Positions 5,930 through 56,975 are shown, counted from the first letter of the stretch. The stretch: DNA of 64,000 nt from Nitrospirae bacterium MYbin3 (GCA_002753335.1 PEAD01000001.1:139245-203244); one strand, 5' to 3'. Made by a program: numbers and translations. The notes: generated from the sequence alone by a model not told the origin.

Positions 5930-5945
5930 TTCAATCAATAAATCC

Positions 5946-5980: not shown

Positions 5981-6025
5981 TAAGCTGTTTTCAGGGGAAA
6001 TTTTTGCGGGGGTGGGAGCATCTGC

Positions 6026-7623: not shown

Positions 7624-7626
7624 CCC

Positions 7627-31771: not shown

Positions 31772-31861
31772 GGAGGGGTGGCTGAGCGGTTGAAAGCGGC
31801 GGTCTTGAAAACCGTTGTGGGGGTGACTCCACCCAGGGTTCGAATCCCTGCCCCTCCGCCA
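31772..31861 (+). tRNA. tRNA-Ser (anticodon UGA)
   Basis: Cloverleaf readable by eye. Acceptor GGAGGGG/CCCCTCC, anticodon stem GCGGT/ACCGT with loop CTTGAAA (anticodon TGA), long variable arm GTGGGGGTGACTCCACCCA, T arm CAGGG-TTCGAAT-CCCTG and encoded CCA. Confidence 0.95.
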
Positions 31862-31863
31862 TT
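31849..31863 (+). repeat. Direct repeat copy 1 (att-like, tRNA-Ser 3' end)
   Basis: TGCCCCTCCGCCATT, identical to 44015-44029. Confidence 0.85.
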
Positions 31864-31986
31864 GCAATAAGTTAGCTGTGATGGTCATTTGGGGTTACCA
31901 TCTGGCAAAAATTATCCGCTCGCAGCTCAATGGGAACAAAAACAAAATGAAACTAAATCCGCTCTGCCATTCCTCCTAAAAATATC

Positions 31987-32016
31987 TTGACAAAGGTTAA
32001 CTTTCAAGTTAACCTA
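31987..32016 (+). promoter_or_regulatory. Promoter with embedded palindromic operator for the toxin-antitoxin pair
   Basis: TTGACA (31987-31992), 17-nt spacer, TAACCT (32010-32015). The inverted repeat AGGTTAAC-N6-GTTAACCT (31995-32002 / 32009-32016) spans the spacer and -10. The GTG start at 32022 lies about 7 nt after the -10. Confidence 0.4.
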
Positions 32017-32021
32017 ACAAT

Positions 32022-32378
32022 GTGGCTAAAACGATAATCTTTTACAGAACAACAGAAGGCAAGTGCCCTGTGAAGGAGTTTCTTGATTCTCTTTCTGCAA
32101 AGGCAGCGCAAAAAACAACATGGGTATTAAGCCTGATTGAAGAGCTCGACATAGTGCCGGCATCATATTTCAAGAAGCTTATCAGCACCGAGAATATCTG
32201 GGAATGCAGGATACAGTCAGGCTCCAACGCGTATAGAATATTCTGCTTTTTTGATGGAAGCTCTGTTGTTGTGCTGACGCATGGCATGATTAAAAAAACG
32301 CAGAAGACACCTCAGCGTGAAATTGAAAGAGCCGAGGCATACAGGAAAGATTATTCACAGAGGAGGGTAAGGAAATGA
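32022..32378 (+). CDS. Type II toxin, Gp49/HigB (RelE superfamily)-like
   Basis: 118-aa ORF with a GTG start. Sequence pattern of phage Gp49-like killer proteins (FYRTTEGKCPVKEFLDSL...WECRIQSGSNAYRIFCFFDG...VVLTHGMIKKTQKTP). Upstream of and overlapping an HTH antitoxin gene. Confidence 0.78.
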   Translation: MAKTIIFYRTTEGKCPVKEFLDSLSAKAAQKTTWVLSLIEELDIVPASYFKKLISTENIWECRIQSGSNAYRIFCFFDGSSVVVLTHGMIKKTQKTPQREIERAEAYRKDYSQRRVRK

Positions 32379-32650
32379 GTGATCTAAGAAAATACATTAC
32401 CGAAAGAAAAAAGAGGGACAAGGGTTTTGCCGGAGGCTATGACGAGGGCTACGAACAGTTCAAGATTGGCGTGGTTTTGAAGCAGGCCCGCGAGACCTCA
32501 GGAATAACACAGGAAGAACTCGCCCGAAGGCTGAAAACAAAGAAGACCGCCATATCACGGATCGAAAACCATGCAGAAGATATTAAACTGTCCACCTTGG
32601 AGAAGGTCGCTCACGCTCTAGGGAAAAGGCTTGAAGTGAAAATCGCATAG
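32375..32650 (+). CDS. XRE-family HTH antitoxin (HigA-like)
   Basis: 91-aa ORF overlapping the toxin stop (ATGA). HTH segment GITQEELARRLKTKKTAISRIEN. Confidence 0.82.
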   Translation: MSDLRKYITERKKRDKGFAGGYDEGYEQFKIGVVLKQARETSGITQEELARRLKTKKTAISRIENHAEDIKLSTLEKVAHALGKRLEVKIA

Positions 32651-32759
32651 AATGCCGATAAGATGTGGCTGCTACGCCTGCGCTCCATTTTGCAACCACA
32701 AGGTTTGTCATAGACATCACTTGAAAAGATTTGAAAGATTCGAAAAAAGATTCAAAAAG

Positions 32760-32788
32760 TTGACACAGAAAAACATATATGCTAATCT
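32760..32788 (+). promoter_or_regulatory. Sigma70-like promoter upstream of the repeat tract and first MCP
   Basis: TTGACA (32760-32765), 17-nt spacer, TAATCT (32783-32788). Preceded by repeated AGATTYGAAA-like motifs at 32727-32758. Confidence 0.45.
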
Positions 32789-32868
32789 TTTTACTCGGGG
32801 AAAATGGGGAGAAAGTGAGTTATACACAGCGAGCCTCACATCGCTTGTGTAAGAAAAAATATGCATGA

Positions 32869-32933
32869 TACACCCAAAAACTACACCCAAAAACTACACC
32901 CAAAAACTACACCCAAAAACTACACCCAAAAAC
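32869..32933 (+). repeat. Perfect tandem repeat, 13 bp x 5 (TACACCCAAAAAC)
   Basis: Five identical contiguous 13-nt units, read directly. Located between two ATG codons (32861, 32865) and the open reading frame of the downstream MCP. Confidence 0.97.
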
Positions 32934-33120
32934 TGACGATATCCTAATCGTCAACCTTCCAAGGCTTAAGGTTTTATACCCGGTTCTTATATCCGGCGTT
33001 GCCCTTATAGCGTGGCTCCTTATATTTTTTCTGGATGATTTTATAAAAAGCCTTATTCCTATCGCTGATACCGCTACTAAAGATGCCTTCAGCCATGCCT
33101 TATTTGTAATTGCGGAAGGC

Positions 33121-34248
33121 TTGGTCTTTTTGGTGGTTACAATCTACTTTCTCGGCAGACCTCTTACCCAAATCGTAGGATTAGAAAAAGAAATTCTTGA
33201 TAAATACGCACTGCTTAATATTCTTGACAAGACAAGAGAAAACAAAATCAAACATTTCTTTTCTTCTCAAAACAAGGTGCATGAACTGACAAAAGCCCAC
33301 CTTGATAACATCGTTTCTACGACGGACGATGCTGCAAACGGCATCATAAATCAGGCGCAGAGCGTGGATGAATCGATGACCAGCCTTATTACAAAGGTTA
33401 ATGGCCTTAAAAAGAGCAGTATCGAATTTGCAGAAGAAACCAAGGCTACCGTAATGGACAACGAAAAGACTATCGTGAGCCTTAGGCAGTATATAAACGA
33501 AAGGATGAGCGATCTTGATGATGACGCAAGAATGATAAAGACTCTTACAGAGGACGCCACCAATATGGCCAGACTGGTACAGCTTATGAAGGACATAAGT
33601 GACCAGACCAACCTGCTTGCTCTGAATGCGGCCATAGAAGCGGCAAGGGCGGGCGAACAAGGCAGGGGGTTTGCTGTCGTGGCATCGGAAGTCAGAAAAC
33701 TTTCTGTTCAATCTGAACATGCTGCGGGAGAAATAGGCAAGGCCATAACCAGCATGGCAAATAATATCAAGAACGAGCTGGGCAAAAAGATTTCTACTGC
33801 GAACACCGAAAAAGAAAAGGCTATTCTTCACCGTCTTGAGGGGCAGTTATCGGCGCTTGCGGACAGTTACCGGTGTTTGGACCATATGAACACCGAGATA
33901 CTTGAGCAGGTGGGCTCCAGTACTGGTGATGTTGCGAATGAGATTCTTCTAATGCTCGCAAACATTCAGTTTCAGGACATAACCCGCCAGCAGATAGAGC
34001 AGGTGGTTGCTGTTTTGCAGGAGATTGACCAGTATTCAGGCAGGCTTGTTGAGTGGATCGAAAAAGAGCATAACTGCGCCACTGATACATGCGAACTGCC
34101 TGACATGGATGTAGATGAGATACACAACAGGCATTACAAGATGGAAAAGCAGCGCACTATTCATAATGAAGTTATTAAATCCCAGAAAAAATCAGCAGGC
34201 AGTCAAACCAAAGCAAACAAAGATGAAGGCGCGCTCGAATTTTTTTAA
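33121..34248 (+). CDS. Methyl-accepting chemotaxis protein (short, membrane-anchored); 5' end apparently displaced by the upstream repeat tract
   Basis: MCP signalling hairpin motif [34 protein letters not shown]. The first canonical start in frame is TTG 33121. The same frame is open back to 32869 and encodes two hydrophobic helices, and TTG 33121 lies inside the second helix. Confidence 0.85.
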
Positions 34249-34266
34249 GATGCACGGAGGAATTGA

Positions 34267-34635
34267 ATGGGCAAAATGATAATGATAATTGACGATTCCG
34301 CATCAATAAGGTCGGTGGTCGGCATAACACTTAAAAAATCGGGCTATGATGTGCTTGAGGCCTCAGACGGCAAGGATGCGCTGGCCAAGCTTACCGGCCA
34401 GAAGGTAAACCTGATGGTCTGCGATGTGAACATGCCGAATATGGACGGCATATCTTTTTTAAAGGCGGTAAAGCAAAACCCCACCTACAAATTCACGCCT
34501 GTGATAATGCTTACGACCGAATCACAAGAATCTCTGAAGCAGGAAGGCAAAGCGGCCGGAGCAAAGGCATGGATGGTCAAGCCTTTTAAGCCGGATATGC
34601 TGCTGGATGCTGTTGTTCAACTGATTCTTCCTTAA
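34267..34635 (+). CDS. cheY: CheY-like single-domain response regulator
   Basis: 122-aa ORF with the receiver acidic pocket IIDDS, phospho-acceptor in MVCDVNMPNMDG, and the conserved T (LTTE) and K (KPF). Confidence 0.9.
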   Translation: MGKMIMIIDDSASIRSVVGITLKKSGYDVLEASDGKDALAKLTGQKVNLMVCDVNMPNMDGISFLKAVKQNPTYKFTPVIMLTTESQESLKQEGKAAGAKAWMVKPFKPDMLLDAVVQLILP

Positions 34636-34653
34636 TCTCAAGCCGGAGGATAT

Positions 34654-34947
34654 ATGAACTTTAATGCCGAAAAAAGTGAAGGCTTTTGCAAAATGACGAT
34701 AGAGGGTGAAATGAACATCTACCACGCGGCAGAACTGAAAAAAGCTATCTTCGAAAACTTTGCTGACAGCACCGCTATTGAACTGGACCTTTTGCAGGTA
34801 ACAGAGATGGACACCTCCGGTTTCCAGATTATATATCTTCTCAAGAGAGAGTCTGATGCCTCTAACAAACAGTTCAGGATAACGAAGCAGAGCGAAGCCG
34901 TAACTGCTGTAATAAATCTTTACAATCTGGCTTCTCATTTCAACTAA
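34654..34947 (+). CDS. STAS-domain protein (anti-sigma-factor antagonist-like)
   Basis: 97-aa ORF with a SpoIIAA/RsbV-like pattern, including the phosphorylatable-Ser region LLQVTEMDTSGFQIIYLL. Confidence 0.78.
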   Translation: MNFNAEKSEGFCKMTIEGEMNIYHAAELKKAIFENFADSTAIELDLLQVTEMDTSGFQIIYLLKRESDASNKQFRITKQSEAVTAVINLYNLASHFN

Positions 34948-34960
34948 CACAGGAGACCAA

Positions 34961-37120
34961 ATGGAAGAAGTCGATCTCATAAGACAAGTTTTTCTGACAG
35001 AAAGCGTTGAGCATCTTCAAAACATCGAGGACTGCCTGCTCGCTATGGAAACCAATCCTGACGACACAGACACTATAAATGCGCTGTTCAGGGCTGCACA
35101 CACCATCAAGGGCTCTTCCGGAATCGTGGGACTCGAAATCGTCGAAAAGTTCACACATAATGTCGAAAGCCTGCTCGATAAAGTAAGAAGGGGCGAACTC
35201 AGGATAAACGCCGATATTACCGAGGTTCTGCTTAAATGCCGTGACCATATAGCCTCTCTTATAGAGATCGAGACGGACGGCAGGCTCCTTGAGGGCGAGC
35301 TGAAGGCAACCGGGGAAGCATTGAAGAGCGAACTTCTGAAGCTGCTTGGCGCAAAACAGGAAGAGGATAAAAAAATCGAAGCGTCTGCGGTTGTGGAAGC
35401 TGCCCCCTCATATAATGCCTCAGAAACCTCGAACTGGCACCTGTCTTTGAGGTTTTCGCAAAACGTGCTTCAGGACGGCATGGACCCTATATCTTTCATA
35501 AATTACCTTTCGCGTATCGGCGAGATCGTATATCTGGCTACTTTGACAGACACTATGCCATCGCTTGAGGAGATGAATCCAGAAAACTGCTATTTGGGCT
35601 TTGAGCTTGAGTTCAAGACCGATTTTGACAAAAAGACGATAGACGATGTTTTTGAGTTTGTTCGCGAAGACAGTCAGATAAGGATTCTTCCTCCGCACAG
35701 TTCTGTTTCATCCTATGTTGAATTAATCAGAAGCCTTCCTGAAGACCCGCTTAGGTTGGGCGAATTGCTTGTTAAGGGCGGCGCACTTACCCAGTCCGAA
35801 CTTGACGCGGCCCTGCAGGAGCAGGATGAGTCTAAAGGCCGGCTCGGAGAAATCCTTGTAAAAGACAGCGTTGTTCATCCCGAGGTTGTTGAAGCAGCGG
35901 TTGAAAAGCAGAAGCGGGCGCGTGAGGTGAAGTCTCTGGAGAGCCAGACCATAAGAGTGGATATAAACAAACTTGATCAGCTTGTGAATATGGTGGGAGA
36001 GCTTGTGATAACAGGGGCCAACATCAACCAGCAGGCGCAGAGGCTTCAGGACGGCAGTCTGCTGGAATCGGCCTCGGCCATGTCCCGTCTTGTGGAAGCA
36101 ATACGGGAGAGGTCGATGCAGGTGCGCATGGTACCTATCAATGAGGTATTTACCCGCTTCAACAGGGTGGTGCGCGACATCTGCCACGACAGCGGCAAAG
36201 AGATCGAGCTTGTGATAAACGGCGGAGACACCGAAGTGGACAAGACGGTTGTAGAGAAGATAAGCGATCCGCTTATGCATCTGGTGCGCAATGCGGCTGA
36301 CCACGGCCTTGAAATGCCGGAGGCAAGAGCCGCAAAAGGCAAGCGGGCAAAGGGTGTTTTAAAGTTAAACGCCTTTCATGACGCAGGCTGCATAGTTATC
36401 GAGGTTGTGGATGACGGCGCCGGGCTGAACAAAGAAAAAATAATCAAGAAAGCTCTCGAAAGGGGCATGCTTAACCAGTCACAGATACAGACAATGACCG
36501 ACGGCGAGATATACAGGCTTATATTCGAAGCCGGTCTTTCGACCGCAGAACAGATTACCAAACTGTCAGGCAGAGGCGTGGGCATGGATGTTGTGCGGAA
36601 AAATATCGAGGCTTTGAGAGGCACTGTAGAGGTTTCGAGTCAGGAAAATCAGGGCACGACCGTAAGCATAAGACTGCCTCTCACCCTTGCTATCATCGAC
36701 GGCTTTCTTGTCGGCATCGGCGATTCTTCTTTCGTTATACCTCTTGATATGGTTGTGGAGTGCGTTGAACTTTCAGAGGCCTACCGCGAATCAAAGGACA
36801 GACGCAGCTACATAAATCTGCGCGGTGAGGTGCTGCCGTACCTTAGATTGAAAGACCTTTTTGAGGAATCTTCAGAGGTGAGCAAGTACGAAAATATAGT
36901 GGTGGTTAAATATCTAGGTTTTAAAGTCGGCCTTGTGGTTGACAACCTGTTCGGAGAGGTTCAGGCGGTTATCAAGTCTCTCGGAAGACTTTATAAAGAC
37001 ATAGAGGGAGTCTCGGGCGCAACGATACTGGGCGACGGAACAGTAGCACTGATTCTGGATATACCGAGGCTTGTGAGCATTGCAGAGAAAATGGAACATC
37101 TTGTAACAGATTCTCAATAA
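34961..37120 (+). CDS. cheA: Chemotaxis histidine kinase CheA
   Basis: 719-aa ORF. Hpt domain with AAHTIKGSSG. HATPase boxes HLVRNAADHGLE, DDGAGL and GRGVGMDVV. C-terminal CheW-like domain. Confidence 0.95.
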   Translation: MEEVDLIRQVFLTESVEHLQNIEDCLLAMETNPDDTDTINALFRAAHTIKGSSGIVGLEIVEKFTHNVESLLDKVRRGELRINADITEVLLKCRDHIASLIEIETDGRLLEGELKATGEALKSELLKLLGAKQEEDKKIEASAVVEAAPSYNASETSNWHLSLRFSQNVLQDGMDPISFINYLSRIGEIVYLATLTDTMPSLEEMNPENCYLGFELEFKTDFDKKTIDDVFEFVREDSQIRILPPHSSVSSYVELIRSLPEDPLRLGELLVKGGALTQSELDAALQEQDESKGRLGEILVKDSVVHPEVVEAAVEKQKRAREVKSLESQTIRVDINKLDQLVNMVGELVITGANINQQAQRLQDGSLLESASAMSRLVEAIRERSMQVRMVPINEVFTRFNRVVRDICHDSGKEIELVINGGDTEVDKTVVEKISDPLMHLVRNAADHGLEMPEARAAKGKRAKGVLKLNAFHDAGCIVIEVVDDGAGLNKEKIIKKALERGMLNQSQIQTMTDGEIYRLIFEAGLSTAEQITKLSGRGVGMDVVRKNIEALRGTVEVSSQENQGTTVSIRLPLTLAIIDGFLVGIGDSSFVIPLDMVVECVELSEAYRESKDRRSYINLRGEVLPYLRLKDLFEESSEVSKYENIVVVKYLGFKVGLVVDNLFGEVQAVIKSLGRLYKDIEGVSGATILGDGTVALILDIPRLVSIAEKMEHLVTDSQ

Positions 37121-37214
37121 AAAATACCAGAAAGGAGGGTTTTGCTCAGGCAGGTTAATAGCATACGGGTAATCGGGAGAGAAATTAATCTTAACAAACA
37201 AGAGGAGGAACAAC

Positions 37215-38903
37215 ATGCAGTGGTACCTGAATCTTAAAATAGGCGTGAAGTTATTGTCAGGTTTTATGCTTGTGGCTTTAATAGCGGGCATTATCGGTTT
37301 TGTGGGCATAAAAGGCATAAAGGATATAGATGAGGCTGATACTCTTATGTATGAAAAGGTTGTAGTTCCGCTTAATGATGCGGGCGATTTATCCATAGCA
37401 TTTCAGCGCATGCGGGTGAATCTGAGAGATTTGATAACGGCCACTAAGGATGAGGATATCCAGAGATTTGCCAACAGAATAAAAGAGCTTAGAGAAATTA
37501 TTGATAAAAATGCGGCTGCTGTTGAGAAGAGCATGGTAACGGAAGAAGGTAAAAAACTCTATGCCACTTTTGCTGAAACAAGAAAAGTATATGGCCCACT
37601 TGTTGATAAGATGGTAGTGCTGGCAAAAGAAAACAAGGATGCAGAGGCTCTTGCCTTAATGCAAGGAGAGGGGGGAAAGGCTTCTCGGGCTGAGCAGGAG
37701 GCTATAGAAAAAATGCTGGATGCCAAAGTTGCGCTTGGAAAGAAGACCGCTGCAGACAATACGGCGCTTGCAAATAATGCAACCAGAATTATGATTGGAT
37801 TAGTAATAGGCGGAGTAGTTATCTCTATAATCCTTGGCATATTCATATCGCGCATAATCAGCAGGGCTTTGAGCGAGGGTGTAACAGTCGCCAACACTCT
37901 TGCTGATGGGGATTTGAGAATAAACATTGATGTTAAGAGCAAAGATGAAACGGGACAACTCCTTGAAGCGCTTAGAAATATGTTAGCTAAGTTGAAGAGC
38001 ATAGTTGGAGAAGTAAAGACGGCGGCCGACAATGTGGCGTCGGGCTCGCAGGAATTAAGTTCAGGCGCACAGCAGATATCTCAGGGCGCAACAGAGCAGG
38101 CAGCATCTGTTGAAGAGACCTCATCCGCAATGGAGGAGATGACCTCAAACATCAAACAGAATTCTGACAATGCGCAGCAGACAGAGAAGATTGCGCAGAA
38201 ATCGGCGGTTGATGCGCGTGAAGGCGGCAAAGCGGTTGCTGAAACCGTAACCGCAATGAAAGAAATAGCGAGCAAGATATCGATAATAGAAGAGATAGCC
38301 AGACAAACCAACCTGCTTGCGCTGAATGCGGCGATAGAGGCGGCAAGGGCAGGAGAGCATGGCAAGGGCTTTGCTGTGGTTGCATCTGAGGTCAGAAAGC
38401 TAGCTGAAAGAAGCCAGACCGCAGCAGGCGAGATAAGCCATCTGTCATCATCTAGCGTGCAGATAGCGGAGAAAGCCGGAGAGATGCTGACCAAGATAGT
38501 GCCGGACATCCAGCGGACGGCAGAACTGGTGCAGGAGATAAGCGCATCCAGCAAAGAGCAGGACACAGGGGCGGAGCAGATAAACCAGTCTATACAGCAA
38601 CTGGATCAGGTAATACAGCAGAATGCCGGGGCAGCAGAAGAGTTGGCCTCCACATCAGAGGAGCTTTCATCTCAGGCCGAACAGCTTCAAAGCACAATAT
38701 CGTTTTTCAAAACTGACGATACCGGAACCGCAGCAAGAAGGGTTGTTGCAAAGAAACCAGCACACAAGATTCAGGTGGCCCACACAGCCAAAAAGATCGA
38801 AGGGCCTAAAGCGGCTAAAGCCATTACAGGCAGAGGCGTAGCTCTTGATATGAATGAGGGGGCAAAGGCCGGAGACGACGACAAGGAATTTGAGAAATAC
38901 TAA
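37215..38903 (+). CDS. Methyl-accepting chemotaxis protein (four-helix-bundle sensor, HAMP, signalling domain)
   Basis: 562-aa ORF with two TM helices flanking a periplasmic region of about 170 aa, a HAMP segment and the signalling hairpin [38 protein letters not shown]. Confidence 0.92.
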
Positions 38904-38963
38904 AGTCGGCTGGATAAAGGCCAGATAAACCTTAAACTTTACAGATAAGAAAGGAGTTTATTT

Positions 38964-39470
38964 ATGAGCGTAGCCGGCGTAACAGAAACAACGCAATACC
39001 TCACCTTCAAATTAGATGATGAAGTATTCGCGCTTGATATAGCAAAGGTAAGAGAGGTATTGGATTTTACCACAGTAACAAAGGTGCCGAGGACGCCCGA
39101 TTTTATGAGAGGCGTGATAAATCTGCGGGGCAGTGTGGTGCCTGTAGTTGACATGAAGCTGAAGTTTGGCATGTCAACAACCCAAAAGACGGTCAACACC
39201 TGCATAATCATCGTTGAGGTGGTGGTGGAAGGGGAATCAGCCATTCTTGGCGCCCTTGCCGATTCAGTGCAGGAGGTTATAGACCTTGAGCCGAACCAGA
39301 TAGAGCCTTCACCCAAGATAGGCACAAGGCTGAAGACCGAATTCATCAAGGGCATGGGCAAGAGGGACAATAACTTTATCATCATCTTGGACATAAACAA
39401 GGTCTTTTCTGCTGACGAGCTTTCGCTTGTTCAGGGAGCTAATGGCCTGCCTGCAGCCTCTGACCAGTAA
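38964..39470 (+). CDS. cheW: CheW coupling protein
   Basis: 168-aa ORF with the typical CheW pattern QYLTFKLDDEVFALDIAKVREV...VINLRGSVVPVVD. Confidence 0.9.
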   Translation: MSVAGVTETTQYLTFKLDDEVFALDIAKVREVLDFTTVTKVPRTPDFMRGVINLRGSVVPVVDMKLKFGMSTTQKTVNTCIIIVEVVVEGESAILGALADSVQEVIDLEPNQIEPSPKIGTRLKTEFIKGMGKRDNNFIIILDINKVFSADELSLVQGANGLPAASDQ

Positions 39471-39543
39471 CAATCATTTATTAAGGCATAGGCGGCATTA
39501 CGCTGCCTATGCCTTAAATCTTAAAGAACACAGAAGGGCTTAG

Positions 39544-40395
39544 ATGGATTATGTAGGCACAATGAAGCTCAAGGATTTTGAGCGGCTCAGCCGCTTCATA
39601 GAGACGGAGCTCGGCATAAAAATGCCGACGACCAAAAAGACTATGATCGAATCACGCCTGCAAAAAAGGCTCCGTATTCTCGGGCTGAAATCTTTTGATG
39701 AATACTGTGAATATCTATTCAGCGGCGACGGCATGGAAGAGGAGCTGGTGCATATGATAGACATGGTTACCACAAACAAAACCGATTTCTTCCGCGAGTC
39801 GTCACATTTTGATTATCTTGTGCAGAAGGTGCTTCCGGAGATGATAAAAGAGTCTGGATCGGGAGTAATGAATACCTTTATGGCGTGGAGCGCCGGCTGT
39901 TCAACAGGCGAGGAGCCTTACACGCTTGCTATGGTTTTAAGTGAGTTCGGCCTTAGATATCCCGGTCTTTCTTTTCAATACATGATCCTTGCGACCGACA
40001 TTTCAACGAGGGTGCTTCAGGCCGCAAGCAAAGCTACATACGCTGAAGACCGTATCAGTCCTATTTCTCTAGAGCTCAGGAAAAAGTATTTGCTAAGGAG
40101 CAGGGACAGGGAGCAGGGTCTTGTGAGGTTCGTTCCTGAGCTTAGGTCCCATGTAAGGTTTCGCAGGCTGAATTTTCTTGAAGGAGACTTCGGAATGCGC
40201 GAGCAGTTTGATGTGATTTTCTGCAGAAATGTTTTCATTTATTTCGACAAGCAGACTCAGGAGGACATTATGAGCAAGTTCTGCAGGCATCTTAAACCCG
40301 GAGGATATATATTCATAGGCCAGTCCGAAAGCTTCACAGGAACGGATCTTCCTCTCAAAAGGGTCAATCCCTCTGTATATAAAAAGGTGGCATGA
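39544..40395 (+). CDS. cheR: CheR chemotaxis protein methyltransferase
   Basis: 283-aa ORF with the SAM-binding region [14 protein letters not shown] and [10 protein letters not shown] motifs. Confidence 0.92.
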
Positions 40396-41455
40396 AAAAA
40401 ATAAGGGTTTTGATAGTTGACGATTCGGCTGTTGTAAGACAGACCCTTACCAACATTATTACATCCGACCCGGAACTCGAAATCATGGCGACCGCGGCAG
40501 ACCCTTTTATAGCGGCCGAACGGATTGCTGAAGAGGTTCCTGATGTTATAACTCTTGATGTGGAAATGCCGAGAATGGACGGCATCACCTTTTTAACCAA
40601 GATAATGAGCCAGCATCCTATTCCGATAGTAATCGTCTCAAGTCTTGCTGACGAGGGATCCGAGACGGCGATGAAGGCGTTGGAAAACGGGGCTGTGGAT
40701 ATAATCACAAAACCGAAGATGGGCACAAAGCAGTTCCTTGAGGAATCCAGAACCTTGGTCTGCGATACCATCAAAGCAGCGGCCGCGACAAAGGCCAAGA
40801 TAAAAGTTGTCAGGCCACGCAGTTCTCTGGTAGCGCCTAAACTAACAGCGGATGCTGTTCTTGCCAAGCCTACAAAGGCAATGGCACAGACAACAGAAAA
40901 AGTTATCGCGGTGGGAGCCTCCACCGGAGGTACAGAGGCGCTCAGGGAATTCCTCGAGTCCTTGCCGCTTGATTCTCCCGGTATTGTAATAGTTCAGCAC
41001 ATGCCCGAAAACTTTACGGCCGCTTTCGCAAAACGTCTTGACGGCATTTGCAGGATATCGGTTAAAGAGGCCGAAAATAACGACACTGTTATCAGGGGTA
41101 GGGCATTGATAGCACCCGGCAACAAGCACATGCTCTTAAAAAGAAGCGGTGCGAGATATTATGTCGAGGTCAAAGACGGACCTCTGGTTTCGCGTCACAG
41201 ACCTTCTGTGGATGTCCTGTTTCGTTCAGCAGCGCAGTACGGCGGCAAAAATGTTATGGGCGTAATCATGACAGGCATGGGTGATGACGGGCGCGGGGTA
41301 TGAAGGAAATGAAAGACGCCGGAGCTTTCAATATTGCACAGGACGAAGAATCCTGTGTTGTTTTCGGCATGCCTAAAAAGGCGATAGAACACGGCGCAGT
41401 TGACGAGATAGTCCCTCTGAAAAACATATCAAAAGTCATATTCGAAAATCTCTGA
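40392..41455 (+). pseudogene. cheB: CheB methylesterase/response regulator interrupted by a -1 nt frameshift
   Basis: The frame from 40392 (REC: [16 protein letters not shown]; esterase: GASTGG, VQHMP, GMGDDG) stops at TGA 41301-41303. The conserved C-terminus ([30 protein letters not shown]...) continues in another frame, open from 41288 to TGA 41453-41455. One missing base in the G-run at about 41289-41291 would restore a normal CheB. Confidence 0.8.
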
Positions 41456-41484
41456 GCATCTGTTTCTAAGTAAAAACTGGAGGA

Positions 41485-42381
41485 ATGATGTCAAAACTTA
41501 CAGACAGCGAACTGATAGCAGAGCTTAAAAACCGGTTTGAGGAACAGGGCAGGGCCCTTCATGACTTGATGGTTATGACCCGAAAACTGGAGGATGTAAA
41601 CAGCAAGCTTCAGGAGTCGGAGACTATGAAAAGCCACTTTATATCAAACATCAAAAACGAAATAAATAATCCGTTGTCAGTAATTTTGGCGATGTCCGAA
41701 ACCATGTCAGGATTACAGTCCTACGCGGTTGAAGAGATCGCTTCAATGGGAGAGTTGATCTTCACCGAAGCCTTTACACTCGATTTTCAGCTCAAAAACA
41801 TTTTTGCGGCGGCAGAGATAGAGGCTGGAGAGGCCTCTCCTTACATTTCGAATGTGGACATAGACAGCCTTTTGCGAGGATTGGTGGATGTTTATAAAAA
41901 GAGGACGTTGTCTAAAAAACTGACAATAAGTTTTGAATGGATAGGCGATGTGGTTAAAAACAGTTTTAAGACCGATTCAGAAAAGCTGGAACTAATCCTT
42001 TCAAACCTTATTTCGAACGCCATAGAATACACCTCCGAAGGCGGCAAGGTGGCGGTAAAAGCATGGCGGCATGACAATAGTCTGAACATCATAGTTGAGG
42101 ACACAGGCATAGGTATAGGCGAGGATGACAAGCAGGTTATCTTTGAACGCTTCAAGCAGCTTGAGGAAGGCGTACGTAAAAGGCACAAAGGCCACGGCTT
42201 GGGACTAAGCGTGACCAAAGCACTTGTGGAGTTGCTTGGAGGAACTATTTCTGTGGTCAGCATTAAAGACAGAGGCAGCATATTCACAGTATTTATTCCC
42301 GAGATTTCGGGGAAAGAGGGGATTGATGTTTTTTCTGATGACGGTAATGAATTTTTCTTTGAGGAGGAAACTAAATTTTAG
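41485..42381 (+). CDS. Histidine-kinase-like ATPase (DHp-like + HATPase_c) lacking the canonical H-box histidine
   Basis: 298-aa soluble ORF. The H-box position reads FISNIKNEINNPL (Asn where SHELRTPL has His). N box LISNAIEYT, G1 EDTGIGI and G2 GHGLGLS are intact. Confidence 0.8.
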   Translation: MMSKLTDSELIAELKNRFEEQGRALHDLMVMTRKLEDVNSKLQESETMKSHFISNIKNEINNPLSVILAMSETMSGLQSYAVEEIASMGELIFTEAFTLDFQLKNIFAAAEIEAGEASPYISNVDIDSLLRGLVDVYKKRTLSKKLTISFEWIGDVVKNSFKTDSEKLELILSNLISNAIEYTSEGGKVAVKAWRHDNSLNIIVEDTGIGIGEDDKQVIFERFKQLEEGVRKRHKGHGLGLSVTKALVELLGGTISVVSIKDRGSIFTVFIPEISGKEGIDVFSDDGNEFFFEEETKF

Positions 42382-42875
42382 TGCAGACCGCCACAGATAT
42401 AGAGGTAAATGAGCATTACCTTTATCCCGGACAGCTTTTTGCAGCCCCCGCCCCTTACGTAATTACTACGATACTTGGCTCCTGCGTTTCTGTCTGTTTA
42501 TGGGACCCGGTTTTAAGAATAGGCGGAATGAACCATTACCTTTTGCCTTTCTGGAACGGAGATGGTCTGCCTTCGCCCAAATACGGAAATATCGCTATCC
42601 CCAAGCTTATAGAAAAAATGCTTTCTATCGGCTCCCAAAGATCAAACCTTAAGGCAAAGGTGTTCGGAGGCGGGGCTGTGCTTGAGACATCAGGAGGTCT
42701 TCTTAATGTTGGAGAACGAAATATCATGTTATATAAAGATCTGCTTGAAAACGAAAAGATGCCGGTCTTATGCTCAGACACCGGAGGCACGCAGGGAAGA
42801 AAGGTGATCTTTCACAGCGACACCGGCGAAGTGTTTGTTAAGAAGATACAAAAGGCAATTAGACCTATTGGATAA
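42381..42875 (+). CDS. cheD: CheD chemoreceptor glutamine deamidase
   Basis: 164-aa ORF with a GTG start overlapping the preceding stop. Catalytic-Cys region TILGSCVSVCLWD and GGMNHYLLP motif. Confidence 0.9.
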   Translation: MQTATDIEVNEHYLYPGQLFAAPAPYVITTILGSCVSVCLWDPVLRIGGMNHYLLPFWNGDGLPSPKYGNIAIPKLIEKMLSIGSQRSNLKAKVFGGGAVLETSGGLLNVGERNIMLYKDLLENEKMPVLCSDTGGTQGRKVIFHSDTGEVFVKKIQKAIRPIG

Positions 42876-42917
42876 GTTAAAAAGACAGGAAAACCACTTA
42901 ATCTTGAGGAGGGAGAT

Positions 42918-43220
42918 ATGGAACTAAAAGAAACAGGTCAGTCTGAGATCACAATTTTGGGAAACATAAGAAATATTGAAGACTATTTGGCGATCAAGAA
43001 AATGATTATTACCATGATAGATAAGGGTGAGAAGAACATAACGATAAAAGTTATTGAATCAATGACTATGAACTCCTCAATTATAGGTTTTATGCTAAAG
43101 GTGGTGTTTGAGGAAAAAATAATCTTAAACCTTCGGGTAAAAAACGACATTCTTTACAATCTTCTCAAAACTCTGAATCTTGTAAAACCGTTTCATGTAA
43201 AGAAGATTAAAGATAAATAA
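42918..43220 (+). CDS. Small STAS-like protein (tentative)
   Basis: 100-aa ORF with GGAGGGAG RBS. Its pattern ITILGNI...NITIKVIESMTMNSSIIGFMLKV resembles the beta-alpha layout and Ser-containing loop of STAS domains. Weak assignment by eye. Confidence 0.5.
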   Translation: MELKETGQSEITILGNIRNIEDYLAIKKMIITMIDKGEKNITIKVIESMTMNSSIIGFMLKVVFEEKIILNLRVKNDILYNLLKTLNLVKPFHVKKIKDK

Positions 43221-43297
43221 AAAGCAGTCAACACCGGACTCTCAAGTTGCCTTAAATGGGAAATTTAGCTAAGGACTTTTTTAAAAACACAAGGGCT

Positions 43298-43534
43298 TTA
43301 TAATTCATCCCCATGAATTGGCTTGCGACTTGGAACCTTAGATAATATTTTTTTAAAATCTGTTTTGTTTGCCCGTTTGGCTCTTTGTTTGAGGTAGTCT
43401 TCTGTCATTAAGGCAGAAATTTTTTCTGATACCGCAGAAGATATAAATTGATTGATCGATACACCCTCTTTGGTCGCAATATCTTTAATATGACGATGTA
43501 TTGAGTTCGGCAAACGCAGACTTAAAGCGCTCAT
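43298..43534 (-). CDS. Ribbon-helix-helix/HicB-like antitoxin
   Basis: Preferred start ATG 43534 (MSALSLRLPNSIHRHIKDIATKEGVSINQFISSAV...) overlaps the PIN gene stop (ATGA). The N-terminal RHH-type strand-helix-helix pattern is present. Confidence 0.72.
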   Translation of the reverse strand: MSALSLRLPNSIHRHIKDIATKEGVSINQFISSAVSEKISALMTEDYLKQRAKRANKTDFKKILSKVPSRKPIHGDEL

Positions 43535-43956
43535 AATAAATCCTCCCATAATTTCTTTGGTGTTATTGCTGTTACATTAAAACGCTCTATGTTTTTAAAG
43601 TGTCTGGTATTGTGAGTTACGATAAACTTTGAACCAGAGGCCACGGCTAATTCCAGCAAAAGGTCATCTTTAGCGTCATACAGGCAGGGACGCCACAGAA
43701 AATATATCTTTTGATGTTCGCTCTGCATGCAAAAATAATTTAAAATCTTTTCTATTTCCCTAGTTGATAATCCTAACTGTGCTTGGTTTCTCTTAAAGAT
43801 GTCTTCATACTCAAATATAAGCGTGGTTGATAGCACCATCTGAACTTTGCCTTCTTCTATTGCTTCTAGAATCTTAAACGAAGCGCCTTTAGATGAATAA
43901 AGCCCTGAATAAAGCACATTCGTATCAAGAATAATTCTAAACTTATTTCGCTGCAT
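43531..43956 (-). CDS. PIN-domain toxin
   Basis: 141-aa ORF with the N-terminal acidic motif IILDTNVL and later conserved acidic residues (EYEDI, DAKDD). Coupled to the small RHH gene. Confidence 0.8.
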   Translation of the reverse strand: MQRNKFRIILDTNVLYSGLYSSKGASFKILEAIEEGKVQMVLSTTLIFEYEDIFKRNQAQLGLSTREIEKILNYFCMQSEHQKIYFLWRPCLYDAKDDLLLELAVASGSKFIVTHNTRHFKNIERFNVTAITPKKLWEDLL

Positions 43957-44014
43957 ATTATAATACTACATTTGGTATCATTTAGCTGTTAATAAAACAA
44001 AGATTTTTATTCAG

Positions 44015-44029
44015 TGCCCCTCCGCCATT
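44015..44029 (+). repeat. Direct repeat copy 2 (att-like partial tRNA-Ser 3' end)
   Basis: TGCCCCTCCGCCATT, identical to 31849-31863. Overlaps the stop codon (44028-44030) of the minus-strand gene to its right. Confidence 0.85.
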
Positions 44030-45023
44030 AAAACCCCTCGACTTTGCGCAAGCTTATTCCAAGCTGAGCTTCAAGATCGTATTTTATTCCATGCACAACA
44101 CCGCCTCCGTTTGCGCAGCAAAGTTTTCTTGCCCTGACATCCTCGATCCAAAGAGGCTCTGAGGCCTCTGCCCGTATGCTGGCTATCATCCGCATTTTCA
44201 GAACTTCAAGTTCATCGTACGAGAGTTCATCCGACAGTGACTGGAATTTTTTCATTATTCGCAGCTTGGCCAGATGAGGGATGCTTCCATTCTGTACGAT
44301 AATGTCGAACATCAAAGCGGCCGCTCTTTCTGACCATAAACCATACTCCCTGCACAGTTCAAGCGCAGCTTTGTACTCCTCAGCCGCATGTTTTACCTGT
44401 ATTTCTCTGAATTTTTCATCCCGTCCAAGGGCCTTGAACATGCCTCTCCAGGGCTCATAAATTATGTGCTTTGCCGGATGTTGAATCGAATGCGCGAAGG
44501 CCATAAGATCTTGCTTGCTCGAAAATAATGCCGTTAATAGTGTTTCGAGCCGGTCATGAAATATAGCTTCGACAACATGCCGCTCCTTCTCTAAGATTTC
44601 GAATAGTAGCTGCTGCAGGGTGCCCTTGCCAAAGTTCCACTGCAAAATGCCTAGACTGATTCCCTGCCCGTCAAAGTCGCCGCTCAGACCGGAGAAGCAT
44701 TCTGGCATAGCAAGTCCAGTTTCGAAGGCTCCGGAGAGGGCCAGGCATCTGTAAGGAAGAGGCTTCGAAACGACTTTAGGTTCAGGAATCTCTTGCTTTT
44801 CGAAAAGTTTTGCCCACGTGTTTGGGCCTACGATGCCATCTGCACTAAGACTATTATCTTGCTGAAAATTCATGACAGAAGATTGGGTATGCCCTCCAAA
44901 AGCTCCGTCAACGTGGCCTTTGTAATAGCCTAAATCCCAGAGACGGTGCTGTATCTGCCTTACTTCATCGCCTTTAGAGCCGAGTTTATATAGGGGCGTC
45001 TGTTTTTTATTTTCTGTATTCAT
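44028..45023 (-). CDS. Peptidoglycan-binding domain protein with a lysozyme-like C-terminal domain (endolysin-like)
   Basis: Preferred start ATG 45023 (MNTENKK...); the frame is open to 45131. N-terminal PG_binding_1 pattern (GSKGDEVRQIQHRLWDLGYYKGHVDGAFGGHTQSSVMNFQQDNSLSADGIVGPNTW). No signal peptide. The C-terminal region has a Glu...Asp-Gly-x-Gly pattern (AFETG...DFDGQGISLGILQWNFG) reminiscent of lysozyme-superfamily hydrolases. Confidence 0.72.
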   Translation of the reverse strand: MNTENKKQTPLYKLGSKGDEVRQIQHRLWDLGYYKGHVDGAFGGHTQSSVMNFQQDNSLSADGIVGPNTWAKLFEKQEIPEPKVVSKPLPYRCLALSGAFETGLAMPECFSGLSGDFDGQGISLGILQWNFGKGTLQQLLFEILEKERHVVEAIFHDRLETLLTALFSSKQDLMAFAHSIQHPAKHIIYEPWRGMFKALGRDEKFREIQVKHAAEEYKAALELCREYGLWSERAAALMFDIIVQNGSIPHLAKLRIMKKFQSLSDELSYDELEVLKMRMIASIRAEASEPLWIEDVRARKLCCANGGGVVHGIKYDLEAQLGISLRKVEGF

Positions 45024-45762
45024 GGTGAAAATTTTTGTCGTAAAGCCGCGATTCCTTGCCGAGCGAAATTTGGGAAGCTTTAAGCGAATCGCCCACGTAT
45101 ATGAGCGCAGTTTTTTTAATGCCTCCGTCATGCACTATTTTTTCTATATCTTTTAAGACCCCACGAAACAGCCGCTGTTCCGGCCATGATGCCTTTTCTA
45201 TCACCGCTATCGGCGTATCTTCAGAGTATCCCTCCAGAAGCTCTTTTTTTACTTTTTCTATCATGCCGACGCTCAGAAAAATAACCATAGAGGCTTTATG
45301 TCTTGCAAGCTCCCGCAGCTGTTCGGCTTCCGGAACCGGAGTGCGGCCTTCCAACCGCGTGAATATTACGGTCTGGCTTATTTCTGGAATAGTCAACTCC
45401 TGACCCAAGGCTGCTGCGCCTGCCATGGCCGAAGATACCCCTGGCACAACTTCGTATTGGATGTTTAGAGTCCGCAATCTTTCTATCTGCTCCGAGATGG
45501 CGCTGTAAAACGAGGTGTCGCCGGTATGAAGGCGGACTAAGGTTTTCTCTGACAGCGCAGCCTCTTTCATTATCGAGACTATTTCGTCCAGATTCATTTT
45601 TGCCGAATCATAAATTACAGCCTTGATATTTTTCAAAAGCTCCGGATTTACAAGGCTTCCGGCGTATATGACCACATCGGCAGCATCAAGCAGCCTTCTT
45701 CCTTTCAAGGTAATAAGTTCAGGATCTCCTGGGCCGGCGCCAACAAAATAAATTATGCCCAT
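45007..45762 (-). CDS. cbiF: Precorrin-4 / cobalt-precorrin-4 C11-methyltransferase
   Basis: 251-aa ORF with the tetrapyrrole methylase signature VGAGPGDPELITLKG and VIYAGSLV. Length and sequence fit CbiF/CobM. Confidence 0.88.
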   Translation of the reverse strand: MGIIYFVGAGPGDPELITLKGRRLLDAADVVIYAGSLVNPELLKNIKAVIYDSAKMNLDEIVSIMKEAALSEKTLVRLHTGDTSFYSAISEQIERLRTLNIQYEVVPGVSSAMAGAAALGQELTIPEISQTVIFTRLEGRTPVPEAEQLRELARHKASMVIFLSVGMIEKVKKELLEGYSEDTPIAVIEKASWPEQRLFRGVLKDIEKIVHDGGIKKTALIYVGDSLKASQISLGKESRLYDKNFHHEYRK

Positions 45763-45764
45763 TT

Positions 45765-46550
45765 TTATGTCTCCAGTTTTTCTTTTATAAATTTGTTAAG
45801 TGCGCTGTGCATCTTTTCGATATCATCATTTTGCGGAAGGGTCGAAACTATCTTTTCTAAATATCCGCCCTCGACGAACATCTTGAAAGAAGGCTTGAAG
45901 TTCAAGTCAAATACCCATGTAAGCTGCAGCAGTTTAAAGTCGTTAAGTGTTTTAAGGTCCGCAAGCTTTGCAAGCTGCCTGTTGAGAATACACTCAATGA
46001 GCGCTTGCGAATATTCCGGCCCCTCAGGGAATCCAAGACCCACTGCTGACGGCCGTTCGTCTTTTGAAGTTATATAGTATAGGTGGAAAAGGCCCCATAT
46101 ATCGAGCTTGTCTGCATCCCGAACCAGCTTGAGGTAAAAAAGTGCTTCGGGATCATTTATATCAGCAAGCATATATGCGTTATGAAACTTAACAGCGGTA
46201 GTTATCCAATTCTGCTCAATTTTAGGAAGTCCGGACAGGGCGTTATTTTTAATAAGTGTTTCTGCTCCAAGCAGGCCGTGATTTATCGAAATGCCGTCCC
46301 TGAATGTTTTGTATTCTGCATATTGCGGAAATCTGCCGATGTCATGAAAGAGCGCGGCCGCTTCGGCAATCAGAGAGCGGTTCTCGTCAAGGCCGAGGCT
46401 GCTGGTTAGTGCGATCGTTTTTTTGCATACGTTGAATGTATGATTCTCTTTGAGATCGATATTTTTTTGGTCTTCCGTGTTTTCCGAATAGTAGGAGCGG
46501 CAAAAACTAGAAAACCATACCTTTAGCCTTGACAGGTCTTCTTTCGTCAT
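45765..46550 (-). CDS. HD-domain phosphohydrolase-like protein
   Basis: 261-aa ORF with an H...HD metal motif (ENHTFNV...ALFHDIGR). Translationally coupled to cbiL (4-nt overlap) and 2 nt from the cbiF start. Confidence 0.78.
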   Translation of the reverse strand: MTKEDLSRLKVWFSSFCRSYYSENTEDQKNIDLKENHTFNVCKKTIALTSSLGLDENRSLIAEAAALFHDIGRFPQYAEYKTFRDGISINHGLLGAETLIKNNALSGLPKIEQNWITTAVKFHNAYMLADINDPEALFYLKLVRDADKLDIWGLFHLYYITSKDERPSAVGLGFPEGPEYSQALIECILNRQLAKLADLKTLNDFKLLQLTWVFDLNFKPSFKMFVEGGYLEKIVSTLPQNDDIEKMHSALNKFIKEKLET

Positions 46551-47263
46551 TTTTTTACCACAATGAGCGAAAAATAGTTTAGGTCTTCCTCGTTGACTTT
46601 TCTCAGATCGTCAAATATCTTTTCGTCTTCCATTCCTGCGCGCACAATGTAGTGTGCCTTGTCGAGGAGTCCTATATCTTTTAGCAGATTGCGTACCATA
46701 AAGAAAACCCGATGCACTTTCATAAGTACAACAGTATCAAATTCTTCGATGGTCTGTTTTAGATCTTCGGTATATGTTGCAGGGAGCACAGCAATCTTTT
46801 CATCAGCCAGAGCAAGGCAGAGCTTGGCTCTGGAGGCAGCCGCGTTTATGGATGATATGCCCGGAATGAACTCCACATTTAATGAAGGAATACGCTCAAG
46901 CAGCCTGTCATAGAGATAAAAAAAGGTGCTGTAAAAAGTCGGGTCGCCTATCGTTATAAAAACTGTATCAATGCCTGTCAAAAGTCTGCTTGAAACCTCC
47001 TCGACCGTCTGCTGCCATTTGGCGTCGAGTTCTGTCTCATACCCCTGAAGCTTGGTTTTTCTCATCGGGAAATGCGCCTCTATGATCTCTTTGCCGGTTA
47101 AATCAACCGCTTTTTCGACGATGGACATAGCAAGGCTGCTTCCTTCCTCTCGGCCCTTAGGAACGCATATGCAGGATGTCTCTTTCAGCAGCCGCACAGC
47201 CTTTAGTGTAAGCAGTTCAGGGTCTCCCGGGCCAACGCCTATTACAGAAAGGGTTCCTGTCAT
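46547..47263 (-). CDS. cbiL: Precorrin-2 / cobalt-factor II C20-methyltransferase
   Basis: 238-aa ORF with the tetrapyrrole methylase signature IGVGPGDPELLTLKA. The CbiL/CobI-like length and the ITIGDPTFYS motif also fit. Confidence 0.83.
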   Translation of the reverse strand: MTGTLSVIGVGPGDPELLTLKAVRLLKETSCICVPKGREEGSSLAMSIVEKAVDLTGKEIIEAHFPMRKTKLQGYETELDAKWQQTVEEVSSRLLTGIDTVFITIGDPTFYSTFFYLYDRLLERIPSLNVEFIPGISSINAAASRAKLCLALADEKIAVLPATYTEDLKQTIEEFDTVVLMKVHRVFFMVRNLLKDIGLLDKAHYIVRAGMEDEKIFDDLRKVNEEDLNYFSLIVVKK

Positions 47264-47265
47264 AT

Positions 47266-48519
47266 TTATCCTAAAACCCCCTTAATTACAAATATTGGAT
47301 TGATGGCAAAAAGATAGTTGCCGTCTCCTATGGGTTTTGATCTCGATACCGAAATTTGAGATACATCCATGCTGAAACCAAAATCACGCAGGGCTGTAGA
47401 GGCATCATTCAGTGTTTCGATCTTTGTGGCGTTTAAAACGAGTATGCCTCTGGTCATGCGCTTTGAAATAAACTCTATTATGCTGCGCAACCCTTTTCCT
47501 GCACCGCCTATGAAAACCCTTTGCGGCTCCGGCAGGGTGGTCAGCGCTTCCGGTGCCTCTCCTCGAATTATTTCGATGTTTGCTCCGCTGTAACGAAGTT
47601 TGTTTTTTGATATGTTTTCTACCTGCTCGCTATCTTTTTCTATGGTGAAAATTTTGAGCTGAGGGCAGAGCCTTGAAGCCTCGATAGAAACAGAACCAGA
47701 ACCTCCGCCTATATCCCAGAAAATGCCGGTTTGCGGCAGTCTGAGCTTATGAAGCGCCACAGCACGTATCTCATCTTTTGTGATCAAGCCCTTTGAATGG
47801 ACCAGCTCGCTTTCATCAAGACCAAGTCTTGAAAATTCCTGAGGGGCTTTTTCATCGGATGTTTTTAAAAGTATCGCCACATTAGGCTCTGCGAAGGACA
47901 TGGCTGCAATTGCGGCAGGTGTTCCAGAAATTATCCTTTCATCAGCGTAGCCAAGCTTTTCGCAGACATGCATAAGCATATTGGCAGTATCAGATTTGAT
48001 CAGCTCTGAAGCTATAACAGAGGGGTTGTTTTGTTTGTCGGTCAAGATGCCTATTTTTTTATGGATTGCGGCTAAATCTGGAATGTCTGCTATTTCGTAT
48101 TTCAGCCGCCTGCGCTTTTCGGGATCGGGGCCTCCGTGAAGGCTCATCAACAGGGCGTCATCCCAAGCCTCACCAATTTTCGAGAATGCAAGCTGCATGC
48201 TCGATAAATCAGGAAATAGCATGACCGCATCTTTGCCGAACTCTTTTAGTACGCGCCGTCCTATGCCGAAGAAAAGCGGGTCCCCCGAAGCTAACAGACA
48301 GATTGTTCGCTTTGCGAGATTATCGCGTATGTATTCTATAGTGGCGTCAACATTGTTGATCACCTTTATCCTGCTGCATACCGTAGCATAATTGTCATAG
48401 CGCTCGAAAACTTCAAGCAGCCTGTGTGATGCAAGGATAACTTCGGCCTGAGAAAGCGCTTTCTCAGCGCTTTGGTCGAGGGGCTTGTAGCCTATTCCGA
48501 TTATAAATATTTTAGACAT
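47266..48519 (-). CDS. cbiET: Precorrin-6Y C5,15-methyltransferase (decarboxylating), fused CbiE/CbiT
   Basis: 417-aa ORF. The N-terminal half is tetrapyrrole-methylase-like (IIGIGYKP..., LASGDPLFFG). The C-terminal half is a class I SAM methyltransferase (WDIGGGSGSVSIEA). Confidence 0.88.
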   Translation of the reverse strand: MSKIFIIGIGYKPLDQSAEKALSQAEVILASHRLLEVFERYDNYATVCSRIKVINNVDATIEYIRDNLAKRTICLLASGDPLFFGIGRRVLKEFGKDAVMLFPDLSSMQLAFSKIGEAWDDALLMSLHGGPDPEKRRRLKYEIADIPDLAAIHKKIGILTDKQNNPSVIASELIKSDTANMLMHVCEKLGYADERIISGTPAAIAAMSFAEPNVAILLKTSDEKAPQEFSRLGLDESELVHSKGLITKDEIRAVALHKLRLPQTGIFWDIGGGSGSVSIEASRLCPQLKIFTIEKDSEQVENISKNKLRYSGANIEIIRGEAPEALTTLPEPQRVFIGGAGKGLRSIIEFISKRMTRGILVLNATKIETLNDASTALRDFGFSMDVSQISVSRSKPIGDGNYLFAINPIFVIKGVLG

Positions 48520-56919: not shown

Positions 56920-56975
56920 AGTGCCTCCTCAAAAAAATTATTCAGATTCTTTTAAACAAAAAGTGTTTTTTGCGG

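Follow-up and report, generated by a model that had tools for sequence, protein, structure and literature searches.

A putative integrase-less island remnant enclosing a chemosensory gene cluster next to a tRNA-Ser(UGA) gene in an uncultured Nitrospirota genome

Results

Organization of the locus and the tRNA-derived direct repeat

The locus described here lies in a 64-kb stretch of DNA (64,000 nucleotides, analyzed at its full length and referred to as the window) from the metagenome-assembled genome (MAG) of Nitrospirae bacterium MYbin3. Immediately 3' of a tRNA-Ser(UGA) gene, which is the sole tRNA of the window according to ARAGORN and Rfam, starts a segment that contains a toxin-antitoxin (TA) module, a chemosensory (che) gene cluster, and a second TA module. 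It is enclosed by two copies of a 15-bp direct repeat, TGCCCCTCCGCCATT (Table 1), and may be the remnant of a genomic island that has lost its integrase. The repeat corresponds to the final 13 nt of the tRNA gene, including the CCA, plus TT, and is made up of the last two T-stem bases, the 3' strand of the acceptor stem, the discriminator base, the CCA, and two trailing T; hence, the segment begins 2 nt past the CCA. Exactly two copies were found in the window, both on the plus strand, as had been reported in a preliminary description of this DNA. No further copy was detected in the window when up to two mismatches were allowed, and the one extra site found with three mismatches was unrelated. 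The window search also failed to find degenerate internal attachment (att) site copies between the repeats.

The same description had stated that the recurrence of a specific 15-mer by chance was very unlikely. For 15-mers in general, this did not stand, since the window contained three non-tandem exact direct 15-mer pairs, close to the chance prediction, and any such pair is by itself unremarkable. One of the three, at 24509 and 25010, lies in a PAS-GAF-GAF gene and is attributable to its internally duplicated GAF domains. For the tRNA end, the statement was upheld: the unusual point is that one of the three pairs takes in the 3' end of a tRNA gene. When a 60-nt probe (the tRNA 3' half plus 10 nt) was compared with 300 Markov-shuffled windows, a match of at least 15 nt was found in only one of them (P ~0.003), and the analytical chance estimate for this exact 15-mer was 3-6e-5. 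Within the two ends of the segment, the 8-mer TTAGCTGT occurs on the plus strand at 31872 and 43982, with no other plus-strand copy in the window. It was rejected as an arm site, because a shared 8-mer between two 60-nt ends is expected in about 5% of cases by chance, and the earlier caution that it may be coincidental was well placed.

Table 1. Features of the tRNA-Ser(UGA) locus, with positions counted from the first nucleotide of the window
Feature	Position	Strand	Basis	Remark
tRNA-Ser(UGA)	31772-31861	+	ARAGORN; Rfam tRNA, 61 bits	Proposed integration target
Left 15-bp direct repeat, attL-like	31849-31863	+	Sister genome L081 collinear up to exactly 31863
20-bp perfect palindrome GGTTAACTTTCAAGTTAACC	31995-32014	.	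Read from sequence	Directly upstream of toxin gene
Gp49/HigB-like (RelE/ParE-fold) toxin	32022-32378	+	Pfam Gp49, 3e-20; NCBIfam RelE/ParE weak match
HTH_3 (HigA/HipB-type) antitoxin	32375-32650	+	Pfam HTH_3, 2.5e-12; NCBIfam antitoxin families
'orf66'	32652-32852	+	No family match	TTGACA...TAATCT promoter-like pair inside
First methyl-accepting chemotaxis protein (MCP) gene, MCPsignal	32861-34248	+	Pfam; two transmembrane (TM) helices predicted from open frame	Out of frame as assembled
Perfect 13-nt x5.1 tandem array TACACCCAAAAAC	32869-32934	+	TRF score 132, 100% matches	In 5' coding region of first MCP gene
CheY-like response regulator	34267-34635	+	Domain search
STAS (anti-sigma-antagonist-like) protein	34654-34947	+	Domain search
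CheA histidine kinase (Hpt, dimerization, HATPase, CheW domains)	34961-37120	+		Best non-self homologue only 67% identical
4HB-HAMP MCP	37215-38903	+	Domain search
CheW	38964-39470	+	Domain search
CheR methyltransferase	39544-40395	+	Domain search
CheB methylesterase, frameshifted	40392-41455	+		1-nt deletion in G-run near 41288
Small HisKA/HATPase histidine kinase	41485-42381	+	Domain search
CheD	42381-42875	+	Domain search
100-aa open reading frame (ORF)	42918-43220	+	Weak slr1659-superfamily match	Start of AT-rich right-end block; GC 0.30
RHH (HicB/CopG-like) putative antitoxin	43298-43549	-	Domain search
PIN_3 toxin	43531-43956	-	Pfam, 3.8e-21; TIGR00305 above cutoff
Right 15-bp direct repeat, attR-like	44015-44029	+		2-nt overlap with TAA stop of PG-binding gene; GC recovers here
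Right flank: peptidoglycan (PG)-binding gene and four cobalamin-pathway genes (three TP_methylase, one HD)	44028-48519	-		Conserved core block, outside island

Toxin-antitoxin modules and disrupted chemosensory genes

The TA modules that had been described at both inner edges were recovered by domain searches, at 32022-32650 and 43298-43956. Both pairs have the layout of type II systems, and their activity is predicted: the Gp49 toxin and HTH_3 antitoxin genes overlap by 4 nt, and the PIN_3 and RHH genes by 19 nt, with the toxin gene first. The palindrome GGTTAACTTTCAAGTTAACC is likely to be the operator of the HigB-like module, judging from its position. The reading frame named 'orf66', previously taken as a gene, did not withstand this analysis; with no family match and a promoter-like pair within it, it is probably the promoter or leader of the che operon.

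The che genes listed in the preliminary description were all found by domain searches, but a frameshift was detected in cheB, and the start codon of the first MCP gene is not in frame with the rest of the gene. Because of these two disruptions, the segment does not encode a complete chemosensory pathway, and the earlier wording of a whole chemosensory system was overstated. In the first MCP gene, the ATG at 32861 runs directly into the 13-nt array, and with five copies of the unit, a stop is reached after 28 codons. With three or six copies, the gene would be intact and encode 453 or 466 aa. Downstream, the frame stays open across the array, with two TM helices and an N-terminus like that of a 456-aa homologue from a related che cluster, L087. 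The cheB deletion lies in the context ...GACGG/GCGCGG..., and the last ~53 codons are in another frame, whose product is 64% identical to the C-terminus of the L087 CheB. The genes for the second MCP, CheA, CheW, CheR, CheY, and CheD look intact, and ~45 other genes of the window showed no frame errors and no unexplained gap or split. The array in the first MCP gene is a candidate for a slipped-strand ON/OFF switch, for a pseudogene, or for an assembly artefact. The che cluster is decaying or, in the case of the first MCP, possibly phase-variable, although an assembly error may also lie behind both disruptions.

Composition

Along the segment, the GC content drops from ~0.45 to 0.32-0.37 at ~42,900 and is back at 0.44-0.49 precisely where the right repeat lies. 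The stretch from 42876 to 44014 (GC 0.34) is the only deviating part of the segment. A comparison of the composition of the segment with that of its flanks, proposed earlier as a check, gave a mixed picture, with a deviation in this right-end block and che genes that are like the host.

Search for mobility genes and partial tRNA ends in viral contigs

Integrase, recombinase, excisionase, relaxase, and transposase domains were not found in any sizeable ORF of the window, and type IV secretion system (T4SS) domains were not found in the segment. This extends to all 64 kb the earlier statement that integrase, excisionase, and transposase genes are lacking, and the suggestion that the element is either decayed or mobilized in trans belongs to the right class of ideas, given the absent recombinase. 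A transposon-style origin was rejected for want of terminal inverted repeats and a transposase, and because target-site duplications are not typically 15 bp long.

An identical 23-nt tRNA-Ser 3' end was found in three IMG/VR contigs, L130 (903-925), L131 (4563-4585), and L132 (1422-1444). ARAGORN found no tRNA in them; what they contain is therefore only part of a tRNA, 25 to ~58 nt long, the form that an attP would be expected to take. L130 and L131 each encode a tyrosine integrase (Phage_integrase, Arm-DNA-bind_3, and Phage_int_M domains) ~115-120 bp from the fragment, and L132 carries portal and terminase genes. The fragments are probable attP sites of elements targeting tRNA-Ser. The contigs are unrelated to the source genome, and their integrases show only that such specificities exist. 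No similarity was found between the island DNA or proteins and the three contigs, and no relatives of the PIN toxin were found among viral contigs.

Relatives and flanking gene order

No strain-level relative was present in any collection queried. The nearest two relatives, GCA_004321915.1 (SRR8426592) and a population of SRR22388082, share ~80% amino acid identity, and their proteins are 73-92% identical to those of the left flank and 67-87% to those of the right flank. CheA had no homologue above 67% among 5.8 billion proteins, whereas flank proteins have orthologues with 78-90% identity; therefore, both close relatives appear to be without this che cluster. Moreover, the che cluster and the TA modules were missing at both flanks in these two relatives. 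Along the left flank (FdhD to PCC to tRNA-Ser), collinearity between the sister MAG and the window extends to exactly 31863, and completely different genes start 8 nt past the tRNA. The right flank is collinear with relatives up to the stop codon of the PG-binding gene, and different DNA follows; one relative has PhdYeFM/ParE TA modules, FecR, and a TPS giant there, and the other has rsmB. The 15-mer was absent after the orthologous stop codon in the two contigs concerned (L084 and L086).

Downstream of tRNA-Ser(UGA), relatives carry a Gp49-type TA pair (L092 and L095), a ParE toxin (L089), BglII restriction-modification genes and a helicase (L091), and an AAA/TPR giant. This variability has the signature of an insertion hotspot. 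One neighboring ORF, in contig L109 (2424-2822, minus strand), overlaps the 3' end of tRNA-Ser by ~30 nt with its own 3' end and is cut by the contig end; it gave weak SHOCT and coiled-coil matches only and could be part of an integrated element. In addition, two Logan contigs from samples of the close relatives, L082 (end 3228) and L083 (end 6371), stop inside the anticodon stem-loop of tRNA-Ser, at the point where the attP-like fragment of L131 begins. These breaks may reflect branching of the assembly graph, caused by strain heterogeneity at the tRNA or by shared 5' halves of tRNA-Ser.

The search for an empty site from the left flank was based on GT9 in genome contigs and PCC in metagenome contigs. 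Many PCC-tRNA-Ser loci were found, and none was followed by the PG-binding/cob block; the PG-binding homologues (P0122, P0123, and P0127) had no tRNA-Ser nearby. Among family-level relatives, none had a che cluster next to tRNA-Ser. The outcome of this check, which had been suggested in the preliminary description, was mixed: the two closest relatives lack the segment, but tRNA-Ser and the right flank were not found adjacent in any relative, and the right flank is rearranged.

In the sister genome (L084), the cob/PG-binding block adjoins CbiA-HEAT-DsrC, while in the window, CbiA-HEAT-DsrC (3027-5929) is 40 kb apart from it. Two more distant relatives, L002 and L030, keep the order CbiA...dsrMKJOP...GT9-(PCC-tRNA-Ser)...HtpG, with 3-5 kb from GT9/tRNA-Ser to HtpG, compared with 17 kb in the window, where HtpG is inverted; therefore, the tRNA-Ser to HtpG interval is expanded here. 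The interval is generally prone to rearrangement.

Elsewhere, the window has the content of an ordinary chromosome, with aro genes, cbiA, dsrC, dsrMKJOP, and the genes for LeuRS, IleRS, htpG, and glgP. The dsrC gene and the dsrMKJOP-like operon (5564-11603; Nitrate_red_gam, Fer4, Fer4_11, and NrfD domains) fit a sulfur-cycling Thermodesulfovibrionia host. Outside the segment, at 55294-58886 on the minus strand, we found genes for another 4HB-HAMP MCP (541 aa) and for a diguanylate cyclase with HAMP and GGDEF domains; therefore, the sensory-transduction genes of this organism are not confined to the island.

Discussion

With moderate confidence, we read the segment as a decayed and mosaic island remnant at tRNA-Ser(UGA), without integrase and similar to the cis-mobilizable elements (CIMEs). 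On this reading, it is an ordinary kind of genomic island, and in every reading, the feature is of a familiar kind. In the history we propose, tRNA-Ser would initially have abutted the PG-binding gene, with an attB junction reading ...CCCTGCCCCTCCGCCATT/AAAACCCCTCGACTTTGCGC. An element with a tRNA-Ser-specific recombinase, most likely of the tyrosine type, would then have integrated into the tRNA 3' end and duplicated the 15-bp core, rebuilding the tRNA end at the left and displacing the original end to 44015-44029, beside the PG-binding gene. The 12.15 kb between the repeats would be what is left of this element plus later accretions, i.e., a HigBA-type addiction module, a ten-gene alternative chemosensory cluster, whose donor was probably a related Thermodesulfovibrionia, and the AT-rich PIN/RHH module. 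The integrase would later have been deleted completely, and excision would take place only with an integrase supplied in trans, as for CIMEs, through a circular attP junction expected to read ...GATTTTTATTCAG-TGCCCCTCCGCCATT-GCAATAAGTTAGCTGTG.... The intact TA modules may hold the segment in place while the che cargo erodes or is switched off. What the data show are the repeat and its position, the gene content, the absence of the segment from the closest relatives, the missing recombinase, and the frame disruptions; the origin of the repeat by integration, the arrival of all the enclosed DNA with or after that event, and any residual mobility are inferences.

The footprint of integration that had been proposed earlier agrees with a repeat that takes in the exact tRNA 3' end and borders, on either side, DNA missing from the closest relatives. 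The right copy sits at the GC step, precisely where the AT-rich block (GC 0.34) meets the stop codon of a conserved gene. Independent support for an att origin comes from the hypervariable region downstream of this tRNA in relatives and from the partial tRNA ends of the viral contigs, and the TA modules at both inner ends also favor our reading. The failure to find an empty site and the host-like che genes gave the proposal no support, and several further observations weigh against our reading. In none of the relatives examined were the two flanks adjacent, and in the sister MAG, they are on different contigs, with unrelated genes after each. No tRNA-end repeats or fragments were found in the variable regions of relatives. 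The junction at 44029 could be a rearrangement breakpoint, and the end of homology at the repeat is weak evidence, because intergenic DNA would not align at the divergence of these relatives. Integrase, its remnants, and excisionase are all missing from the window, and tblastn with the att-linked integrases of L130 and L131 returned noise only. The repeat, of only 15 bp and with P ~0.003, is short, also when compared with the 25-58-nt tRNA-like blocks of the viral contigs. At the right end, no tRNA-like pseudogene was detected, as there was no tRNA match (Rfam, E up to 10) and a small RNA match was at noise level. The 40 nt before the right repeat, aligned with the tRNA ungapped and in register, are identical at 17/40 positions (P ~0.008 before correction for the five lengths tried), and this resemblance is suggestive only. 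Finally, the che genes have a GC content of 0.47 (0.455 outside the segment) and tetranucleotide distances that lie inside the range of the window or only slightly exceed it, and clusters of the same type occupy ordinary positions on the chromosome in class-level relatives, flanked by ubiB and cyd genes in L087 and after queC in L088. That the che cluster was the cargo of an integrating element cannot be shown, because of its host-like composition, a cluster type native to the class, and the lack of an empty site. The cluster is therefore native to the wider clade and came to lie here either within an element whose donor was related or through a relocation of its own.

The second of these routes leads to an explanation that we consider unlikely, in which the scar is real and the che genes are not cargo: a small element would have left the AT-rich block of the 100-aa ORF (orf100), RHH, and PIN genes, perhaps with HigBA, and the che cluster would have been relocated or recombined in independently. 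The foreign composition confined to 42876-44014, the chromosomal position of the same cluster type in class-level relatives, with 57-83% identity for most proteins, as for core genes, and a demonstrably rearrangement-prone locus all speak for it. However, the che cluster is wholly inside the repeats and missing in both closest relatives, no internal degenerate att copy separates it from the modules, and no relocation mechanism is visible, i.e., neither an insertion sequence (IS) element nor a flanking repeat. Another improbable explanation dispenses with the scar: the second 15-mer would be a chance match in a hypervariable stretch downstream of a tRNA where rearrangements are frequent, the TA modules ordinary selfish cassettes of the sort that collect in such places, and the che cluster a vertically inherited one, lost in the two nearest relatives and decaying here. 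An exact tRNA 3' end, in direct orientation, intergenic, and placed at a GC step and a gene end, is hard to reconcile with this, as the joint chance would be well below 0.003; in addition, this tRNA end is documented as an attP-like fragment beside integrases, and no family-level relative has a che cluster by tRNA-Ser. Loss without any integration would nevertheless fit the two other chance 15-mer pairs of the window, the host-like composition and clade-native relatives of the che genes, the lack of a recombinase or its remnant, the failure to find an empty site with flank synteny broken in every relative, and the disruptions of cheB and the first MCP gene, which are compatible with ongoing loss.

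A more active element, i.e., a CIME-like chemosensory island still mobilizable by excision in trans and with a phase-variable first MCP (OFF with five copies; ON with three or six), seems very unlikely to us. A tRNA-Ser-specific integrase from another part of the genome or from an incoming element would then excise it, slipped-strand changes in the 13-nt copy number would switch the receptor, and the module would be shuttled horizontally. Extremely unlikely is an assembly artefact, in which the contig would be a chimera joined at the tRNA or the repeat and the frame disruptions would come from assembly errors. The source is indeed a MAG, and contigs of relatives break inside this very tRNA, but a 15-bp repeat is below assembler k-mer length, collinearity with relatives extends for many kb on both sides, and the ~45 other genes of the window are free of frame errors.

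CIMEs are elements without integration and transfer genes that have kept attL and attR (PMC6323972, PMC5704250). The remnant reading shares with those of Streptococcus thermophilus, related to ICESt1 and ICESt3, the attL/attR-like repeats at the 3' end of the target gene, the lack of integrase, excisionase, and transfer genes, a presumed origin by decay of an integrated element, and movement that would need the recombinase of another element. Here, however, no cognate integrative and conjugative element (ICE) or integrative and mobilizable element (IME) of the same att specificity is known for the genome, the att role is putative, the host is an uncultured member of Nitrospirota/Thermodesulfovibrionia, and integration would have been into a tRNA gene, with a repeat of no more than 15 bp. 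Membership of the CIMEs cannot be claimed for a segment whose att sites, identical as the two repeats are, remain putative and whose mobilizing partner is hypothetical. Insertion 3' of a tRNA, a repeat of the tRNA end, TA stabilizers, and accessory cargo are also shared with classical tRNA islands and prophages (P4-like), of which L130 and L131 are examples with an integrase beside a fragment of the same tRNA end. Unlike in these, the defining integrase is gone without a trace, and most of the segment is not atypical in composition. The repeat is a 15-bp acceptor-stem block, whereas the blocks in the viral examples are longer and start at the T arm or anticodon loop.

As to the cargo, L087 and L088 are alternative che clusters of non-flagellar type with the same repertoire, CheA/W/R/B/D plus STAS and an extra histidine kinase, and share the order CheY-STAS-CheA-4HB-MCP-CheW-CheR-CheB. 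The proteins are between 44% (first MCP) and 83% (CheB) identical to those of L087, most of them at 57% or more, comparable to core genes at that distance. The histidine kinase and CheD genes follow CheB here and precede the MCPs there; moreover, only the present cluster lies beside tRNA-Ser between TA modules, with cheB frameshifted and a 13-nt array breaking the frame of the first MCP.

The finding changes no concept, and its use would be in MAG annotation and in understanding the patchy distribution of che clusters. If our reading is true, a hotspot for integration at a tRNA gene can accommodate an alternative chemosensory cluster in uncultured Nitrospirota of the sulfur cycle (Thermodesulfovibrionia), and island remnants that have no integrase would persist, with TA modules anchoring them even as the cargo erodes. 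If one part of the segment merits closer study, it is the 13-nt repeat in the coding region of the receptor gene, which may provide phase variation of a chemoreceptor.

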